From contig CBDCNV010000002.1 in assembly GCA_965219535.1 (NCBI GenBank), positions 1,260,001 to 1,292,000 on the forward strand: a stretch of DNA of 32,000 nucleotides. The letters run 5' to 3'. Positions 1,139 to 31,956 of the stretch are shown one piece after another (within the stretch, counting starts at the first letter, position 1; each line of letters begins with the position of its first letter). The notes beneath the pieces were generated by a model. That model had not been told where the DNA came from. It saw only the letters and a list, made by a program, of their open reading frames with translations, and did no database searches. The DNA is from Opitutales bacterium (GTDB taxonomy: Bacteria > Verrucomicrobiota > Verrucomicrobiia > Opitutales > PNEW01). The translations under genes and the position numbers were made by a program.

Positions 1139-1350
1139 ATTAGATTCTAAATAAAATGGCTATTGTCATTAATAGATTTTATTAATTGTCATTGCGCCTG
1201 CCGGCCATAGCCTTGACGACGGATGAAGAATCATGCAATTGCGGGAGCCGCGGCAATCCAGAAAGTTATAATACCCTTACTCAGAACGATTAACCCTAAG
1301 ATGTAAACCTAACACGGTCTTGTGCGCCTTAGCGTGTCAGTACTCTTCCC

Positions 1351-1495: not shown

Positions 1496-1673
1496 TAGAT
1501 TTTATTAATTGTCATTGCGCCTGCCGGCCATAGCCTTGACGACGGATGAAGAATCATGCAATTGCGGGAGCCGCGGCAATCCAGAAAGTTATAATACCCT
1601 TACTCAGAACGATTAACCCTAAGATGTAAACCTAACACGGTCTTGTGCGCCTTAGCGTGTCAGTACTCTTCCC

Positions 1674-5721: not shown

Positions 5722-5749
5722 GACTTTACCTTTTTTGCCGATGGATAAA

Positions 5750-5774
5750 GTCAAAATGTCAAAAAGTCAAAAGG
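5750..5774 (-). repeat. GTCAAAAG octamer array (x3)
   Basis: gtcaaaatgtcaaaaagtcaaaagg. It reads TTTTGAC in the sense of the minus-strand gene that starts at 5721. Confidence 0.95.
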
Positions 5775-5775
5775 G

Positions 5776-5820
5776 ATATGCGTGTATGCGTCAATGCGTG
5801 TATGTGATGATGCGGTAATG
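5776..5820. repeat. ATGCGNNN octamer array
   Basis: atatgcgtgtatgcgtcaatgcgtgtatgtgatgatgcggtaatg. Confidence 0.9.
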
Positions 5821-7129: not shown

Positions 7130-7197
7130 CGCGTTCCACCATTGCTTATATAATAATTCTTGTTTCTTACGCTATGCATCGTGGATCACTCCGGCTT
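7130..7197. repeat. ~68-bp 3'-flank module, copy 1
   Basis: cgcgttccaccattgcttatataataattcttgtttcttacgctatgcatcgtggatcactccggctt. It is about 80 percent identical to 17788-17855. Both copies lie just 3' of minus-strand genes. Confidence 0.85.
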
Positions 7198-7358
7198 GGA
7201 AGATGTCGTTCCGCGATTGCGGAACTCGGAACTGGTCTTCCGGCTATTCGGTTTGGAAGATGTCATTCCGCGATTGCGGAACTCGGAACTGGTCTTCCGG
7301 CTATTCGGTTTGGAAGATGTCATTCCGCGATTGCGGAACTCGGAATTGGTAATACGGC
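7189..7358. repeat. 57-bp tandem repeat, ~3 copies
   Basis: Units start at 7198, 7255 and 7312 (ggaagatgtcNttccgcgattgcggaactcggaactggtcttccggctattcggttt). Each unit holds a ttccgc-gatt-gcggaa hairpin. The array overlaps the 3' end of CDS 7301-8149. Confidence 0.95.
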
Positions 7359-8149
7359 GCTGGGTCAAATCCGGGATATCTCTTTACCATTCCCTCGATG
7401 AATAGCTTGGTCCACAGCGGGTCACCGGGCGGCGGGAAACCCAACAGTTCTCGCTGGCGCGGTGTAGCCTCAACCATAAAGCGACACATCGCTTCGTTGC
7501 TGGCGCCGCTTTTATAAGTGAAGGTGCGACCCCCGTCCCAGGGCCGGTCTTTGCGGGAATAACAAACATGCATGACCGGGCGATGGCCTCGATGTGAGGT
7601 GAATTCGGAAGCAGCGTGCCGAGTGAATATACTGTAGAGACAGACTGAGCCGCCAGGTACGATCATCGGCACCGCTTCCTCGTCCGGTCGGCCATTAGGC
7701 ACCATACGGATCGGTGCCAAATCCCGCTCCACATCATCGAAGCAATAGAAAAAGTCCAGGTGCATATAGTCGTCGGGCTCGATGATTGGTCCCAGTGTAT
7801 TATTACTGTAGTCGATGTGAAATTTCGTATTGTATTCCTCGCCAGCGTATTTCATTCCCAGATGGCCTTCGCAGAGGCGGATTTCGCGGGTGCCGAAAAC
7901 GCGCTCAGCCGCATCAACCAGATCCGGATGGACGGTGACGTGATTGAGACCGGAGTGGTCCCAGGGGAAGAGTCGATGTTTCGGCGTATTGTTCTGTCGT
8001 TTTTGAGATTCGAATACGTCGAAAGGCGGGGCGAATAAAGTAAAGATTCCTTGGAGCGCAGCTTCCCGCTCATCTTTAGTCAGGAAGTTTTCGATAATAA
8101 GGAACCCCTGCTTTTTGTAAGTGGCGAGTTCCGCGTCAGTGATGTGCAT
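7301..8149 (-). CDS. phytanoyl-CoA dioxygenase (PhyH) family Fe(II)/2-oxoglutarate oxygenase
   Basis: 282 aa. The N-terminus MHITDAELATYKKQGFLIIENFL is typical of PhyH. It has an H-x-D (HIDYS) motif and a distal His. GAGGAG lies upstream of the ATG. The last ~17 codons and the stop are encoded by the 57-bp tandem repeat. Confidence 0.8.
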   Translation of the reverse strand: MHITDAELATYKKQGFLIIENFLTKDEREAALQGIFTLFAPPFDVFESQKRQNNTPKHRLFPWDHSGLNHVTVHPDLVDAAERVFGTREIRLCEGHLGMKYAGEEYNTKFHIDYSNNTLGPIIEPDDYMHLDFFYCFDDVERDLAPIRMVPNGRPDEEAVPMIVPGGSVCLYSIFTRHAASEFTSHRGHRPVMHVCYSRKDRPWDGGRTFTYKSGASNEAMCRFMVEATPRQRELLGFPPPGDPLWTKLFIEGMVKRYPGFDPAPYYQFRVPQSRNDIFQTE

Positions 8150-9809: not shown

Positions 9810-9921
9810 TTTTTCTCCTCGTTAATTATTTATAATCTAATGAATTGAAGCTTTAACCCAAAAGCTAAGTTTGCCGAACGTGTGGCGATGACAATCTAAA
9901 AAAGTGAGTGTCCAGACCGCC

Positions 9922-11589: not shown

Positions 11590-11620
11590 TTTTGACCTTT
11601 TGACGTTTTGACATTTTAAC
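11590..11620 (+). repeat. TTTTGAC octamer array (x3-4)
   Basis: tttttgaccttttgacgttttgacattttaac. It is antisense relative to both flanking minus-strand genes. Confidence 0.95.
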
Positions 11621-16492: not shown

Positions 16493-16601
16493 CCGGTCAT
16501 TTTCAGAGCTGTGCACAATAATGATTCCCGTAAGTTAGCTAAACTTAAGATTAGTTTACCCAGCAAGTCTTTTAACGAATGTCAGTTTTTCCCACAATAA
16601 A

Positions 16602-16829
16602 GGCAACACGCTAATATGTGTATACGCGATAATGCGTGTATGCGGTCATGCGGAGCATCTACTGGAGGGACAAGTGGTGCCTGTCGGCCATAGCCCAACG
16701 GGCGTCGGATGATCGTGTCTGTGAATATTCAACAAGAGTATTAAGTGTTAGGTGGAGCGGGCTGTCCCTAGCACGCTTCTTAATTAATCAATAATTATTA
16801 CAAAAGCGGTAGGGACACCGCGTTCCACC
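16602..16829 (+). repeat. composite direct repeat, left copy (ATGCG array + GGAGGGAC hairpin + GGTGGA hairpin)
   Basis: 16602-16727 matches 17571-17696 with 4 mismatches in 126 bp. 16728-16829 is a more diverged homologue of 17697-17797. It is followed by the terminus-like tcgcgatgacaaagg (16831-16845). Confidence 0.95.
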
Positions 16830-16989
16830 TTCGCGATGACAAAGGAAAAAGATTTTTGACCTTCTACCATTCTCATCGTACACACGCATGTTTGAGTATA
16901 CACATATTACTATCCTTTCAGCAGAACGACCTAATTCAGCCCCTGGCTAAGCGGTTGACTAGCTGCTGCGTGTCCTCCCCAATGACTGG

Positions 16990-17547
16990 TTAGAGTAAAT
17001 GGAATGATTCTTCTATCTTGTCACCTTTGAGGAATATTTCCTCAACGTCCTCCGGTATATTCGCGCGGCGAACTACTACAGGCCACAGCTCCAATGGAGG
17101 TTTGGTGGTCAGTATTGTGTCTAGCCGTACTATTTCGAGATCATTGCATATGTACGTTCCCATGTCGCACTGAGTGCCTCCGCAAGCTCGACGATAGTGA
17201 CACTCTCTGAACGAGCAAGTACGACCGAGATACTCCCCTTGCTCATTGCACAGGAATATGTCAGCTCCAGAGCTTTTACTTTGCGCACTACCCTTGAGTC
17301 TCCGGCCGAGCTTGGCCAGTGAAGCGATGTTGGCGATGGAAGTCACAGTCACCAACAGATCAGCATCTTTGGGCTTCCACTTTTTGGTGAGCAACGAACC
17401 GATCATCGCAATCCGGACAATCCCCTGCATTTGGCTTGCGTCGCAGACAAATTTGCGGACTCCCTTTAGTAGAAACGAACGAAGCGGTTCCTGGGAGGAC
17501 GTCTCCATACAGCCTAGCATTAGATTAGCCAACAAGCTTTTTAGCAA
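16990..17547 (-). CDS. orphan Pol-beta-type nucleotidyltransferase-like protein with Cys-rich C-terminal half
   Basis: 185-aa ORF. MIGSLLTKKWKPKDADLLV resembles the G-S...D-x-D minimal nucleotidyltransferase motif, followed by C-x5-C-x5-C-x4-C-x7-C. The start is uncertain (TTG 17547, ATG 17520 or ATG 17508). The ORF is bracketed by composite direct repeats. Confidence 0.45.
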   Translation of the reverse strand: MLKSLLANLMLGCMETSSQEPLRSFLLKGVRKFVCDASQMQGIVRIAMIGSLLTKKWKPKDADLLVTVTSIANIASLAKLGRRLKGSAQSKSSGADIFLCNEQGEYLGRTCSFRECHYRRACGGTQCDMGTYICNDLEIVRLDTILTTKPPLELWPVVVRRANIPEDVEEIFLKGDKIEESFHLL

Positions 17548-17570
17548 GTCTCAGTTATTACAGCGAGAAT

Positions 17571-17797
17571 GGCAACTCGCTAATATGCGTATACGCGATA
17601 ATGCGTGTATGCGGTCATGCGGAGCATCTAATGGAGGGACAAGTGGTGCCTGTCGGCCATAGCCCAACGGGCGTCGGATGATCGCGTCTGTGAATACGCA
17701 GTAGCGGATTTTTATTTTAGGTGGGGTGGGCTGTCTCAGCACGCTTAATAATTATTCAAATATTACTACAAACGCGCTAGAGACAGCACGTTCCACC
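17571..17797 (+). repeat. composite direct repeat, right copy
   Basis: See the left copy; the offset is 969 bp. Weaker similarity extends upstream to agcaagtct (17543 versus 16562), overlapping the 5' end of ORF 16990-17547. Confidence 0.95.
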
Positions 17798-19644: not shown

Positions 19645-19702
19645 GCATATGCGTATACGCATATGCGATAATGCGGTAATGTGTGTATGCGATGATGCGG
19701 TA
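19645..19702. repeat. ATGCG-type array beginning with a 22-bp perfect palindrome
   Basis: gcatatgcgtatacgcatatgc (19645-19666) is a perfect palindrome, followed by gataatgcggtaatgtgtgtatgcgatgatgcggtac. Confidence 0.95.
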
Positions 19703-19821: not shown

Positions 19822-19852
19822 CCCCGAACCCTGAACCCCGAACCCCGAACCC
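19822..19852. repeat. GAACC(C/T) heptamer array
   Basis: ccccgaaccctgaaccccgaaccccgaaccc. It touches the stop codon of CDS 19852-20307. A shorter cctgaaccctg lies at 19729-19740. Confidence 0.95.
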
Positions 19853-20382: not shown

Positions 20383-20415
20383 GTCAAAAGGTCAAAAAGT
20401 CAAAAGGTCAAAAGG
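20383..20415 (-). repeat. GTCAAAAG octamer array (x4)
   Basis: gtcaaaaggtcaaaaagtcaaaaggtcaaaagg. It reads TTTTGAC in the sense of the PNPOx-like gene and overlaps the open upstream frame of that gene. Confidence 0.95.
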
Positions 20416-20416
20416 A

Positions 20417-20463
20417 AATGCGTAAATGCGATTATGCGAATAAGCGAAGATGCGGTAATGCGT
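20417..20463. repeat. ATGCGNNN octamer array
   Basis: aatgcgtaaatgcgattatgcgaataagcgaagatgcggtaatgcgt. Confidence 0.9.
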
Positions 20464-20486
20464 ACCGAGGGTGAACCCCGACATCC
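20462..20486 (+). repeat. 25-bp direct repeat, copy 1
   Basis: gtaccgagggtgaaccccgacatcc, 23/25 identical to 20767-20791. Confidence 0.9.
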
Positions 20487-20546: not shown

Positions 20547-20741
20547 CTTGTCATTGCGAAGGAGGCGAAGCCGACTGCGGCTACCGAGCGCCGCGACATC
20601 TTCCATTTCCAGGCGACTGACGATACGCTGTCCTATGTTCTCCTGGAATGGAAGATGTCGGACTACGTCCTCGGTAGCCACGACTGACAAGCAACCTTCC
20701 CCCGTCGCACGAGGCTATGGAGGACAGGCGCGATGACAAAG
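20547..20741. repeat. GTCATTGCG / CGCGATGACAAAG-bounded palindromic element (~195 bp)
   Basis: The termini cttgtcattgcg and cgcgatgacaaag are inverted. The inner arms ctaccgagcgccgcgacatcttccatttccagg (20581-20612) and cctggaatggaagatgtcggactacgtcctcggtag (20642-20677) are also inverted. Confidence 0.9.
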
Positions 20742-20766: not shown

Positions 20767-20791
20767 GTACCGAGGGCGAAGCCCGACATCC
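20767..20791 (+). repeat. 25-bp direct repeat, copy 2
   Basis: gtaccgagggcgaagcccgacatcc. Confidence 0.9.
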
Positions 20792-20846: not shown

Positions 20847-22115
20847 ATGATAAATAATAACGAAACAAAAGCTGATGTCGTGATTGTCGGTGCCGGTGTA
20901 ATTGGAATTTGCACGGCTTATTTCCTTTCTCAGTCGGATCGAGATATTATCGTCGTTGATAAAGATGAGGTCTGCTCGGGCTGTTCCTACGGAAACGCTG
21001 GCTTGATCGTTCCCAGCCACTGCGTCCCGCTGGCTGAGCCGGGAGTAATAAAAAAAGGAATGAAATGGATGCTGAATCCCGAGAGCCCTTTTTATATTAA
21101 ACTGCGTCTCGATAGGGACTTGCTTGACTGGCTATGGCGATTCCGAAGCGCTTGCAATGAAACTCATGTAAAGCGTTCGATGCCGGTAATCAGTGATCTC
21201 ACATTCGAGAGCTTGCAACTTTACAACGAGATAATCGGAAACGATGGGATAGACTTCGGTTTTGAGCAACGGGGTTCGCTCTACGTGTGCAATACTGAAA
21301 AAGCAATGGATGAGCTTGAGGAGAATATGGGTCAATTGCAGTCGGTGGGGATCGAATCAGAGCTCCTCGATAAAGTTCAGACCCAGGAGAAAGTGGGTGA
21401 TCTAAAAGTTAATACGGTCGGCAGCGTATACTACCCACAAGATGCACATCTCCAGCCGGCCCGGTTCGTCAGGGAGTTGGCGAAAAAGGTTATCGAATCC
21501 GGGGTGAAGATCCAATCTAAGACTGAAGTCCTGGGATTCGAAAGAACAGGCAATCGGCTTACGAAAGTCTGGACCACGCGAGGTGATATCGAGGCGAATG
21601 AGGTGGTCATTGCGAGTGGAGCCTGGTCACCTGCAATCGCGCGGCAGCTTGGGCTGCGCCTGAAAATTCAAGCGGGGAAGGGCTACAGCATTACCCTCGA
21701 GCGTCCTGAAGTTTCAGCGGACATCCCATTAATGCTTGTCGAGATGAAGGTTGGCGTGACCCCGATGGGAGATACTATTCGTTTCGCGGGAACACTCGAG
21801 ATGGCGGGACTGAACTTTGCAATCAACGAGCGAAGGGTTCAGGGTATCCTCAAGTCTGTGCCGCAATATTTGCCCGATCTCGATCCCAATCTCTGTCGGT
21901 TGATCGAGGTCTGGCGCGGGCTGCGCCCCTGCACTCCGGACGGATTACCGTATTTAGGACGCCCCAAAAATTTTGAGAATCTGACCGTAGCTGCCGGGCA
22001 CGCGATGATCGGAGTATCTCTCGGACCCGTAACCGGTAGAATCGCATCTAATATCGTGCTCCGTGAAGACCCCGGATTCGATTTAACCCCATTGAGATTA
22101 AGCCGATTTAACTGA
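20847..22115 (+). CDS. FAD-dependent oxidoreductase, D-amino-acid dehydrogenase (DadA)-like
   Basis: 422 aa. The N-terminal DVVIVGAGVIGICTAYFL dinucleotide fold and the overall DAO-family layout are present. Confidence 0.85.
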   Translation: MINNNETKADVVIVGAGVIGICTAYFLSQSDRDIIVVDKDEVCSGCSYGNAGLIVPSHCVPLAEPGVIKKGMKWMLNPESPFYIKLRLDRDLLDWLWRFRSACNETHVKRSMPVISDLTFESLQLYNEIIGNDGIDFGFEQRGSLYVCNTEKAMDELEENMGQLQSVGIESELLDKVQTQEKVGDLKVNTVGSVYYPQDAHLQPARFVRELAKKVIESGVKIQSKTEVLGFERTGNRLTKVWTTRGDIEANEVVIASGAWSPAIARQLGLRLKIQAGKGYSITLERPEVSADIPLMLVEMKVGVTPMGDTIRFAGTLEMAGLNFAINERRVQGILKSVPQYLPDLDPNLCRLIEVWRGLRPCTPDGLPYLGRPKNFENLTVAAGHAMIGVSLGPVTGRIASNIVLREDPGFDLTPLRLSRFN

Positions 22116-22123: not shown

Positions 22124-22155
22124 GTCAAAAGGTCAAAAAGTCAAAAGGTCAAAAG
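22124..22155 (-). repeat. GTCAAAAG octamer array (x4)
   Basis: gtcaaaaggtcaaaaagtcaaaaggtcaaaag, immediately 3' of the plus-strand DadA-like gene. Confidence 0.95.
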
Positions 22156-22192
22156 GGGAGGAGCGCTGACGCGATAATACGAAGTATCTTCT

Positions 22193-22344
22193 GGAGGGAC
22201 GCGTGGAGCCTGTCGGCCATAGCCTAACGGGCGTCGGGTGATCGCGTCCGTGAACATGCCTTGTGTAAAGTTCTCCATTTACGGCTACGACGGAGCGTGA
22301 CCTTACATACCTTCGGACTATGGCCGATAGACGCGATGACAAAG
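22193..22344. repeat. composite palindromic element (GGAGGGAC hairpin + CCTGTCGGCCATAGCC arm ... GGACTATGGCCGATAG arm + CGCGATGACAAAG terminus)
   Basis: 22193-22255 is homologous to 16664-16726 and 17633-17695. cctgtcggccatagcc (22209-22224) is inverted relative to ggactatggccgatag (22315-22330). The element is followed by ccgaattccgcaatcggaaatcggaaattg (22354-22383). Confidence 0.9.
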
Positions 22345-23346: not shown

Positions 23347-23355
23347 GGGCAACTA

Positions 23356-23388
23356 GTCAAAAAGTCAAAAGGTCAAAAAGTCAAAAGG
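23356..23388 (-). repeat. GTCAAAAG octamer array (x4)
   Basis: gtcaaaaagtcaaaaggtcaaaaagtcaaaagg. It reads TTTTGAC in the sense of the gluconolactonase-like gene and lies 9 nt from its ATG. Confidence 0.95.
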
Positions 23389-23392
23389 TTTT

Positions 23393-23427
23393 GGGTTCAG
23401 AGGTTCACGGTTCAAGGTTCAGCGGTT
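23393..23427. repeat. GGTTC (reverse GAACC) heptamer array
   Basis: gggttcagaggttcacggttcaaggttcagcggtt. Confidence 0.95.
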
Positions 23428-23529: not shown

Positions 23530-23571
23530 TTCCTGGTATAATCTTACACATTCACGACCATTATCAGTCGT

Positions 23572-23609
23572 CGCCCGGTGGGCTATGACCGACAGGCACT
23601 GCGTGGCCC
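23572..23609 (-). repeat. reverse-oriented CCTGTCGG(C/T)CATAGCC module
   Basis: cgcccggtgggctatgaccgacaggcactgcgtggccc is the reverse complement of the module found inside the long GGAGGGAC hairpins. Confidence 0.85.
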
Positions 23610-23651
23610 TAAGAATTACTTGTATCTTGCACCCTGCATCTCGCGTCCTCT

Positions 23652-23763
23652 ATTGTCATTGCGAAGGAGGCGATGCCGACTGCGGCAATCCAGGGGGGCT
23701 GATATTACACTTCCGACATTCCCCTGGATCGCCACGGCTGACAGCAGCCTCGCGATGACAAAT
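23652..23763. repeat. GTCATTGCG / CGCGATGACAAA-bounded palindromic element (~112 bp)
   Basis: attgtcattgcgaagg is inverted relative to cctcgcgatgacaaat. The inner ggcaatccagggg is inverted relative to cccctggatcgcc. Confidence 0.9.
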
Positions 23764-24913: not shown

Positions 24914-24948
24914 CTTCGACTTTCGACTTTCGACCTTTGACCTTCGAC
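24914..24948 (+). repeat. TTCGAC/TTTGAC array (x5)
   Basis: cttcgactttcgactttcgacctttgaccttcgac, 13 nt upstream of the RidA ATG. Confidence 0.95.
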
Positions 24949-24961
24949 TATCTATTCCCCT

Positions 24962-25349: not shown

Positions 25350-25425
25350 GGTGGAACGCGCTGTCCCCTAGCGCGTTTCAAAATGTCATAAGGGAAGAAG
25401 CGTGCTAGGGACAGCCCGCTCCACC
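25350..25425 (-). repeat. GGTGGA...TCCACC long hairpin, inverted orientation relative to 16751-16829
   Basis: The right arm cgtgctagggacagcccgctccacc is the exact reverse complement of 16751-16775. The left arm is ggtggaacgcgctgtcccctagcgcg. The element lies between convergent genes and is followed by a reverse TTAGG array (25431-25460). Confidence 0.95.
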
Positions 25426-25482
25426 GCTTACCCTAACACTTAACACTTAAAACTTAACACTGATCGATAAATCACCAATCAC

Positions 25483-28876: not shown

Positions 28877-28926
28877 ATATGCGATAACGCGTGTAAGCGA
28901 AAACGAGTAGATGCGGACTTGCGTCC
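28877..28926. repeat. degenerate ATGCG-type array
   Basis: atatgcgataacgcgtgtaagcgaaaacgagtagatgcggacttgcgtcc. Confidence 0.8.
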
Positions 28927-31604: not shown

Positions 31605-31645
31605 GTATACGCGATTAAGCGTGAACGCGGGTATGCGGAATTAAG
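31605..31645. repeat. degenerate ATGCG-type array
   Basis: gtatacgcgattaagcgtgaacgcgggtatgcggaattaag, upstream of the symporter-fusion gene. Confidence 0.8.
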
Positions 31646-31711: not shown

Positions 31712-31956
31712 CTTGTCATTGCGAGGGAGGTATTCAACCGATCGTGGCAATCCAGGCGAATAATCATTGTACTTACGAATACTTAGTCTACACTAAGATC
31801 TTTCCAATGAGGTTCATCTCCTCAATCAAGTTAATTGTTTAATTGAGAGTAAGCCCTAACATCCAGAGACCTGCATCACTCAACTGACATCCTCCTGGAA
31901 TGTAAGATGTCGCTACGCTCGGTAGCCGCGTCGCGTTGCTCCTCGCAATGACAAAC
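31712..31956. repeat. GTCATTGCGAGG / CCTCGCAATGAC-bounded palindromic element (~245 bp)
   Basis: The termini are a perfect 12-bp inverted pair (31715-31726 and 31941-31952). The element contains ggcaatccagg and cctggaatgtaagatgtcgctacgctcggtagcc, as element 20547-20741 does. Confidence 0.9.

Follow-up and report, generated by a model that had tools for sequence, protein, structure and literature searches.

Ssn proteins are small, single-domain GIY-YIG enzymes (Chenal et al., Nat Commun 2025; PMC11893778); their target is a hairpin repeat, which they recognize in single-stranded DNA and next to which, on its upstream side, they cleave. The repeat, NTS (CGTCATTCCCGCGMAVGCGGGAATCYRG), is an extended form of dRS3 and has been generalized as the Ssn-related motif (SRM); mutagenesis indicated that for SsnA the C after the palindrome is most critical for binding and the three bases before the palindrome for cleavage. 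The same study found that SsnA/NTS modulates transformation in N. meningitidis, and it likened the NTS-ssnA-NTS layout to an insertion sequence, with mobility being raised as a hypothesis only (PMC11893778). Its text makes no mention of Di Nocera, De Gregorio and Rocco (BMC Genomics 2013; PMC3733652), who had described repetitive extragenic palindromic sequences (REPs) with a CGTC tag; these, grouped as CGTC-1 to -4, include the Neisseria dRS3 and the Rickettsia RPE-4 and RPE-6 repeats, and were reported in five phyla but not in Verrucomicrobia, for which only the GTAG-tagged REPs of Opitutus terrae were described. Here we analyzed a 32-kb stretch (the window; 32,000 nt) of a metagenome contig of an Opitutales bacterium (CBDCNV010000002.1, positions 1,260,001–1,292,000; ENA ERZ25067264), the gene content of which consists of ordinary metabolic genes, and which contains three long palindromic elements, E1, E2 and E3, together with several shorter copies, all of them intergenic. 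We think it probable, at roughly 0.8, that these elements are arrays of Ssn-related hairpin motifs and the gene-less relics of elements in which an ssn gene lies between two such hairpin units (unit-ssn-unit elements).

Each arm of these elements is a directional unit composed of an unpaired YGTC tag (TTGTC in the window), a 5-bp stem (ATNGC … GCN'AT), an insert in which a GC-rich mini-hairpin lies between GAGG and CGAC-NNN, and an unpaired CCAG tail. The 461 units that we collected from all loci gave the consensus YGTC ATTGC GAG … CG(A/C)(A/G) GCAAT CC A G, with a length from GTC to TCC that has modes at 27 and 33 nt and that in some units reaches ~87 nt. In these 461 units GTC is mostly preceded by T (51%) or C (44%), and the stem is followed by CC (74%) or CT, then by A (64%) and then by G (60%). 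The window copies begin with TTGTC in five of five left ends and finish with GACAA at their right ends, all window units bear a CCAGG or CCAGA tail, and the common termini, TTGTCATYGCG…CGCRATGACAA, occur far more often than expected by chance (GTCATTGCG, 7 observed versus 0.37 expected; GCRATGACAA, 11 observed versus 0.14 expected). (An extra match to GTCATTGCG, at 21606 inside the DAO gene, was rejected as an element copy; we judged it a chance coding match because GTC ATT GCG encodes the VIA of the conserved motif VVIASGAWS.) The initial annotation, made from the sequence without database searches, had ascribed shared terminal inverted repeats to the family, which holds, and had put the perfect repeat of E3 at 12 bp, which is in fact 14 bp. 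It had also described an internal GGCAATCCAGG arm; E2, E3 and the copies at 1186 and 1509 do have it, but the left arm of E1 has a longer arm, GGCTACCGAG..GACATCTTCCATTTCCAGG, in its place. A CCTGGAATGKAAGATGTCG..CTCGGTAGCC arm is found in E1 and E3.

The stem of the unit covaries. Among 173 units free of constraint from our search baits, the third stem position is occupied by T:A in 121 units, by C:G in 26 units (from 20 loci in several phyla) and by G:C in 5 units, with each kind of non-pair seen at most five times (Fisher's exact P = 1.7e-18, not corrected for relatedness). Moreover, compensation operates within a unit and not between arms, because the left unit of E2 has the stem ATTGC/GCAAT whereas the right unit has ATCGC/GCGAT. 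Whole elements are predicted to fold far more stably than shuffled sequences on both strands, whether treated as DNA or as RNA (z = -5.3 to -6.5).

These very stable predicted hairpins, which occur on both strands, could be taken to mean that the elements are structured RNAs (terminators, mRNA stabilizers, or sources of small or double-stranded RNA) selected at the RNA level, and REPs in E. coli can act on mRNA. Several findings argue against such an explanation, which we regard as very improbable. In particular, mispairs of the T:G and C:A kinds are equally frequent in the stem (5 versus 5), and there is thus no sign of an RNA-specific tolerance of wobble pairs. The hairpins are not trailed by a T-run, and sites resembling terminators or promoters occur at chance level; the unit end ATGACA resembles a -35 hexamer, and one promoter-like site (10/12) faces the PNPOx gene, but there is no enrichment of such sites. 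E1 and E2 lie between divergently transcribed genes, the units occur in both orientations, their presence varies among relatives, and a search of Rfam returned no match at the gathering threshold or at E <= 1.

To identify genes carried between such units, we used a repeat-first screen in which head-to-head unit ends 320–4000 nt apart were collected and the open reading frames (ORFs) between them were listed. At three loci (loci from our searches carry the prefix L), namely L149 (on OY829953.1, an Opitutales MAG that is the closest relative), L179 (Bacteroidota) and L214 (Patescibacteria), the ends lie 385–637 nt apart and the only ORF between them is a GIY-YIG ORF. The partner ORFs are 95–115 aa long, with PF01541 as the only significant Pfam domain; typically, a gene of ~290 bp encodes a single-domain GIY-YIG protein of ~97 aa within an element of ~0.48 kb. 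The initial annotation had suggested that an autonomous partner with the same inverted repeats and a transposase be looked for; a gene-bearing partner with the same ends thus exists, but it encodes a GIY-YIG nuclease and no transposase. Among 113 genome loci selected by the repeat, tblastn placed a GIY-YIG gene, either intact or decayed, beside the bait unit in 7. We also examined a protein-first sample of 80 metagenome loci, chosen by the protein, and scored a unit end in the right orientation within 350 nt of the gene. Such an end was present upstream at 50 of 72 loci, downstream at 45 of 72, and on both sides at 35 of the 64 loci that had sufficient flanking sequence on each side, and the density of unit ends was 4.56 per kb near the gene versus 0.53 per kb at distances beyond 700 nt, an 8.6-fold difference. 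The two-sided flanks of L149, L179, L214, L322, L324 and L325 were inspected nucleotide by nucleotide. In OY829953.1 the ssn genes occupy L149 1758–2051 and L322 1501–1794. Relatives of the window organism each contain at least two paralogous copies of the ~0.48-kb element, and one copy (L324) comes from the same sample as the window (ERZ25067264).

Proteins encoded by the partner elements are 44% (L149) to as much as 58% (L203) identical to small GIY-YIG ORFs from IMG/VR that are bracketed by the canonical NTS, CGTCATTCCCGCGMAVGCGGGAATC (reference ORFs L384, L335, L407 and L440; E = 2e-24), and because of this identity we place them in the Ssn family. NCBIfam contained no specific model that matched the partner proteins, and the best match in the PDB was the UPF0213 protein 1zg2. 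In a five-way alignment, the Ssn-like proteins of L149, L179, L214, L203 and L196 are 49–59% identical to one another. These five loci belong to Verrucomicrobiota, Bacteroidota, Patescibacteria and Chloroflexota, and their flanking units contain an identical 18-mer. Such protein identity across four phyla, together with the identical 18-mer, suggests inter-phylum transfer.

The window elements bear traces of such gene-bearing elements, most clearly in E3 (31713–31954, minus strand). E3 has the layout of an internally deleted unit-ssn-unit element, in which a long 5' unit (31954–31894, minus strand) is followed by a 57-nt segment, by a remnant of ssn comprising its frameshifted last ~20 codons and 3' untranslated region (31836–31757, minus strand), and by the 3' unit (31756–31713, minus strand). 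The core of E3 (31748–31836) is 83% identical to positions 1733–1821 of L149 (E = 5e-20), and the remnant corresponds to frameshifted codons ~78–97 of ssn, with the peptides INLIEEMN and PHWKDLSVD still recognizable. We read E3 as a deletion derivative because these frameshifted codons remain. Two further copies of this type of deletion derivative occur in L152, which is not syntenic. E2 (23653–23761, no strand assigned) is a minimal head-to-head dimer of a left unit (23653–23694, plus strand) and a right unit (23723–23761, minus strand) separated by a 28-nt loop, the terminal GACATTCCCC of which also closes the 3' untranslated end of ssn elements. Finally, a solo unit at 1186–1261 (plus strand; TTGTC ATTGC … GCAAT CCAG), which contains a 60-nt insert that includes the module-3-like GCCTGCCGGCCATAGCC, continues into CCAGAAAGTT, like the 5' inner end of ssn elements (compare GGCAATCCAGAAAGTTTGAATTAACC in L325). 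The homology of E3 to the 3' end of ssn, the loop end of E2 and the continuation of the 1186 unit argue that the window elements are gene-less relics. The second copy of the solo unit (1509–1584, plus strand) lies inside a perfect 323-bp tandem duplication; the two repeats, at 1156–1802 of the window, are 100% identical and span the solo unit and the first codons of a peptidase-M15 ORF, and they reflect either a recent duplication or an assembly artefact.

E1 (20548–20739, no strand assigned) is likewise a head-to-head dimer of two Ssn-related hairpin units with the tags outside. Its left unit (20548–20613, plus strand) is of the arm type that we call A and contains a nested module, module 2, whereas its right unit (20642–20739, minus strand), separated from the left by a loop at 20614–20641, is of the ATCGC type, B, and contains module 2 as well as a further 33-nt insert related to module 3. 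The three full members that had been proposed for the family were therefore borne out, with slightly revised limits. Of the one-ended copies proposed alongside them, those at 1186–1261, 1509–1584, 16833–16842 and 22333–22342 hold up, but that at 9885–9894 is merely a 10-nt match. The third of these copies occupies 16820–16842 (minus strand) and consists of a unit 5' end, CGCGATGACAA, fused to another palindromic module; the fourth, at 22318–22342 (minus strand; CTATGGCCGATAGACGCGATGACAA), is of a sub-type shared with the right end of E1 and the 1186 solo unit.

Three arm types, A, B and C, are found in the window and its relatives, and they combine as head-to-head heterodimers, A with B or A with C, with the tags outside. 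Together with E1–E3, we identified 15 more such dimers in Opitutales loci, with whole elements of ~110–270 nt. The loops are partly homologous between copies, and whole dimers are found again at loci without synteny, with the arm types unchanged and the loops partly shared; near-identical A-B dimers that resemble E2, for example, lie at the non-orthologous loci L148, L149, L207 and L235 (9522–9653). No target-site duplication surrounds any of the 18 dimers, the flanks of which are purine-rich extensions of the palindrome.

Module 2 is a 29-nt sequence (TACCGAG, a hairpin, and CGACATCTTCCAT) that interrupts the 3' half-stem of the unit at a fixed point (GC^AATCC). In the window it is found within arms at 20582–20607, 20648–20676 and 31900–31924, and in a relative at L235 14470–14540. 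It also occurs on its own. The initial annotation had pointed out a 25-bp direct repeat around E1 (20462–20486 and 20767–20791, both plus strand) with 23 of 25 positions identical, as we also found, and had rejected it as a target-site duplication, rightly so, since both copies are solo copies of module 2 (GTACCGAG-GGTGAACC-CCGACATCC in the left copy). The left copy is kept at the orthologous place in both L235 and L236, L235 having no E1 at the corresponding site, whereas the right copy is degenerate in L236 and absent from L235. The right arm of E1 provides an insertion polymorphism, in that its ortholog in L236 is without the 29-nt module 2. Composite long units that carry module 2 were seen only in the window and in two Opitutales metagenome-assembled genomes (MAGs). 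Module 2 and the unit have a common core, CGAG-hairpin-CGAC, and the intact ssn copy L324 bears module 2 in its 5' unit.

The initial annotation had called the elements miniature inverted-repeat transposable element (MITE)-like. Part of this description stands, in that the elements are non-coding, multi-copy, bounded by inverted ends and polymorphic among close relatives; they also have variable cores. They resemble in these respects the short, intergenic deletion derivatives of DDE-type insertion sequences, such as Correia/NEMIS and Nezha, which are moved by cut-and-paste through their terminal inverted repeats. The ends, however, are not those of a classical transposon. Rather, they are self-folding directional units with internal covariation that occur also singly, and they match a kind of REP that is already described (CGTC/TGTC-tagged REPs, PMC3733652; NTS/SRM, PMC11893778). 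DDE-derived MITEs have target-site duplications and a parent with a DDE transposase, neither of which is seen here; the only gene found between such ends encodes the 97-aa GIY-YIG nuclease, and no transposase family recurs near the units in ~2 Mb of flanking sequence. We therefore consider it very improbable that the elements are classical MITEs. A first pass over the genome loci likewise revealed no gene family that recurs beside the units. ORFs between units in IMG/VR loci encode structural proteins of phages or gene transfer agents (portal, capsid, terminase, tail), a pattern that reflects how IMG/VR is sampled, and a 401-aa ORF between two dimers in L122 was rejected as a secreted repeat protein.

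A second established route of spread is that of REPs that form inverted doublets (REPINs) and are mobilized by REP-associated tyrosine transposases (RAYTs), IS200-like enzymes of the Y1 type. The REPIN-RAYT and IS200/IS605 systems were reportedly worked out by Nunvar in 2010, by Bertels and Rainey in 2011 and by Ton-Hoang in 2012. The resemblance is close, since there, too, two inverted hairpin units with an unpaired 5' tetranucleotide and a short spacer form a doublet that is the replicating unit, a single small gene lies between the same units, the substrates are single-stranded DNA, and target-site duplications are absent; in addition, RAYT genes exist in bacteria of the Planctomycetota-Verrucomicrobiota-Chlamydiota (PVC) group. 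However, the tag of REPIN-RAYT systems is GTAG and not YGTC, and their enzyme is an HUH/Y1 transposase with a covalent intermediate, whereas the gene flanked by the units here encodes a GIY-YIG nuclease. When 2.0 Mb of flanks were searched by tblastn with E. coli RayT as the query, a single RAYT was detected, in a Planctomycetota MAG (L168, 5300–6440; 45% identical to E. coli RayT), that is bracketed by tandem GTAG REPs and not by the neighboring TGTC unit. A protein search with this RAYT found relatives in Planctomycetota only, and none on contigs of the window's relatives, and no transposase flanked by CGTC units was found in the earlier survey (PMC3733652). That a RAYT mobilizes the window elements thus has, in our estimation, very little chance of being correct. 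(At 300 nt from the RAYT of L168 there are both a TGTC-ATTGC unit and a unit like dRS3/NTS, TGTCATTCCTGCGGAAGCAGGAATCCAG, such that three kinds of hairpin repeat are present in one spacer.)

We next consider how the window elements compare with the two described repeat classes. As in Ssn/SRM systems, a small GIY-YIG gene (<150 aa) is bracketed within 500 bp by inverted hairpin repeats, the repeat opens with HGTC and AT and closes with AT and CC(A/T)G, extra copies without a gene occur between genes, and the invariant positions, GTC before the stem and C after it, are those critical for SsnA. As in the CGTC REPs, which we compared by their described features, the unpaired CGTC tag is often TGTC, the stem opens with A-T and T-A, a CCA tail follows, and head-to-head dimers predominate, often as heterodimers, in intergenic positions and with no transposase. 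The orphan REPs with a CGTC tag described in 2013 and the SRMs described in 2025 appear to be one and the same, and the kind of system present in the window is already known, its repeat class since 2013 and its nuclease since 2025, with the window elements representing a divergent and very widespread member. Differences from the Ssn/SRM description are that the units here are mostly head-to-head dimers that recur as whole elements, that we document both insertion polymorphism and deletion derivatives in which part of the gene survives, and that the host is a member of the Verrucomicrobiota (Opitutales), which PMC11893778 does not mention; the link to a GIY-YIG gene, in turn, is absent from PMC3733652.

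The sub-type found here extends well beyond Opitutales. Its 18-mer, TTGTCATTGCGARGGAGG, is present in at least 113 loci of species-representative genomes, and the rest of the unit is present at ~105 of the 118 TTGTCATTGCGARGGAGG matches listed. The pattern GTCATTGCGA-N(8-36)-GCAATCCAG occurs in at least 120 IMG/VR contigs. Among the matches listed, hosts belong to at least 12 phyla, as assigned from record titles, and include Verrucomicrobiota (many of them Opitutales), Bacteroidota, Chloroflexota, Cyanobacteriota, Planctomycetota, Armatimonadota, Patescibacteria, Bacillota, Actinomycetota, Pseudomonadota, Desulfobacterota, Marinisomatota and Mcinerneyibacteriota. A literature search with sequence strings returned PCR primers only.

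To compare orthologous spacers, we aligned the window with contigs of relatives anchored on the DAO protein encoded beside E1, the orthologs of which are 95% (L236), 94% (L235) and 90% (L238/L239) identical; long contigs of relatives include the 4.49-Mb chromosome OY829953.1 of an Opitutales MAG. E1 is present in the window and in L236 and is absent from L235 and L238/L239, although in L235 a different dimer lies elsewhere in the orthologous spacer. E2, which occupies the spacer between the SGL and SDR genes, is absent from both L236 and L235, with L238/L239 lacking the SDR gene and thus not being comparable, and E3 is partial in L236 and absent from L235, with L238/L239 not being syntenic there. 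The DAO-SGL spacer consists of 271 nt of modules in the window, of 32 nt in L236, of 37 nt in L235, and of 125 nt of other modules in L238/L239, and the spacer that holds the copy at 22318–22342 is entirely absent from L235 and L236. Polymorphism, for which the initial annotation had proposed a test, is therefore evident for E1, E2, E3 and other copies, and because orthologous spacers of relatives at 90–95% amino acid identity differ in whether they contain them, the copies are not fixed.

These comparisons bear on the idea that the units are functional sites kept by the host, serving either as marks of "self" for Ssn restriction of incoming single-stranded DNA or as recombination hot spots that would accelerate the exchange of genes in spacers, with their spread being a by-product. 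The effect of SsnA/NTS on transformation would fit such a role, as would the finding that, between the window and L236, conservation is higher in the arms of E1 than in the spacer around them. Moreover, spacers that bear modules vary in gene content among relatives; an example is the DUF6932-like ORF at 16990–17547, which lies between ~280-nt direct repeats of intergenic modules (16550–16829 and 17519–17797; 83% identical). This ORF is absent from the syntenic L235 and L236, whereas L238 has three other genes there, and we regard the spacer as a hot spot of gene gain and loss because the relatives differ in this way. However, copies are not kept at orthologous positions in these relatives, and many are decayed, one-ended or interrupted by other modules. 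On balance a host function is an unlikely principal explanation, though one that is compatible with, and not opposed to, an origin of the repeats from ssn elements.

How would gene-less relics of unit-ssn-unit elements arise and spread? Gene loss would have left the last ~20 codons in E3, two units and a few tens of inner bases in E1 and E2, and one unit in the copies at 1186 and 1509. If it acts like the SsnA of Neisseria, an Ssn encoded in trans would bind the unit once the DNA is single-stranded and the hairpin is extruded, with binding presumably depending most on the C just 3' of the stem, and it would then cut the tagged strand near the GTC tag. Repeated nicking, followed by repair or copying, would disperse whole dimers and shuffle them between intergenic spacers. 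That the Opitutales Ssn proteins bind and cleave these units is inferred by analogy with SsnA, and that this activity drives mobility is a further and more conjectural step.

Several observations weigh against this interpretation. The published SRM motif, HGTCWYN(0-2)YYVSBRHN(0-5)WNVSBRGN(0-2)RNCYNB, which does match NTS, fits 0 of 401 units and no site in the window, with agreement confined to the outer parts (HGTCWY with TGTCAT, and RNCYNB with ATCCAG). The stem is only 5 bp, pairs and covaries, and encloses a structured insert of 19–60 nt, in contrast to the 8-bp stem and 4-nt loop of NTS and the 8–9-bp stems and 4–5-nt loops of the described CGTC REPs, longer loops being allowed in some Bradyrhizobium and Kosmotoga families (PMC3733652). 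A lone unit folds weakly (z = 0 to -2.3). The 32-kb window contains no ssn gene, and the L324 copy from the same sample is not assignable with certainty to the window organism. Among relatives there is no clean pair of filled and empty sites with single-element boundaries, spacers differing instead by compound blocks. In addition, GIY-YIG nucleases form no covalent intermediate and so cannot by themselves carry out strand transfer. Gain and loss of copies could equally result from recombination, gene conversion or slippage between repeats; a 480-nt block in L235 with CTTTC at either end is an example.

The gene-bearing copies, the deletion derivatives with gene remnants and the insertion or absence polymorphism seen in closely related Opitutales genomes are what one would expect of a mobile element that is active or was so until recently, and they are the clearest in silico indication to date of present or recent mobility in such elements. 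We raise, tentatively and as something that falls short of being probable, the broader proposal that unit-ssn-unit elements are mobile elements of an unrecognized type, which would rely on a ~97-aa GIY-YIG single-strand nuclease together with host repair, would have spread between phyla, would have given rise to MITE-like derivatives such as E1–E3, and would be parasitized by the 29-nt module at the 3' half-stem. If true, this would supply the "missing" mobilizing enzyme of the orphan CGTC REPs of 2013. Because a widespread sub-type (at least 12 phyla) escapes the published motif, censuses based on the SRM motif would undercount Ssn sites. Such Opitutales lineages would be suited to the study of how the sites recognized by a nuclease can multiply although the enzyme lacks strand-transfer chemistry, and they could yield new single-strand cleavage specificities.

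The spacers of the window contain other repeats as well. Further palindromic modules are interleaved with the Ssn-related units; one family (GGAGGGAC…GCCTGTCGGCCATAGCC…) is found at 16642–16730, 17611–17699, 22171–22259 and, inverted, 23550–23610, and a second, with the hairpin GGTGGAGCGGGCTGTCCCTAGCACGCTT, at 16751–16830, 17720–17795 and 25350–25425, where the 31-nt arms at 16751–16781 and 25395–25425 are 100% complementary. Almost every spacer also contains tandem arrays of 7–8-nt units (GTCAAAAG, ATGCGNNN, TTCGACY, GGTTCAR, CCCCGAA and GTGTTAG), at 1351–1381, 1674–1704, 5747–5804, 11590–11617, 16612–16650, 17585–17621, 19650–19700, 19822–19852, 20383–20460, 22124–22156, 23355–23427, 24915–24949, 25434–25461, 28877–28920 and 31605–31640. 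The GTCAAAAG arrays beside the start codons of the PNPOx and SGL genes are kept in the same position in L235, L236 and L238, whereas the palindromes that share these spacers are not. Another assembly of the contig (L001, ~14070, corresponding to ~24915 of the window) has one extra 7-nt TTCGACT unit, with no mismatches in 21 kb. Finally, at 7192–7362 a 57-nt unit is repeated three times in tandem (96–84% identical) and overlaps the 3' end of a PhyH-like ORF on the opposite strand (7301–8149).

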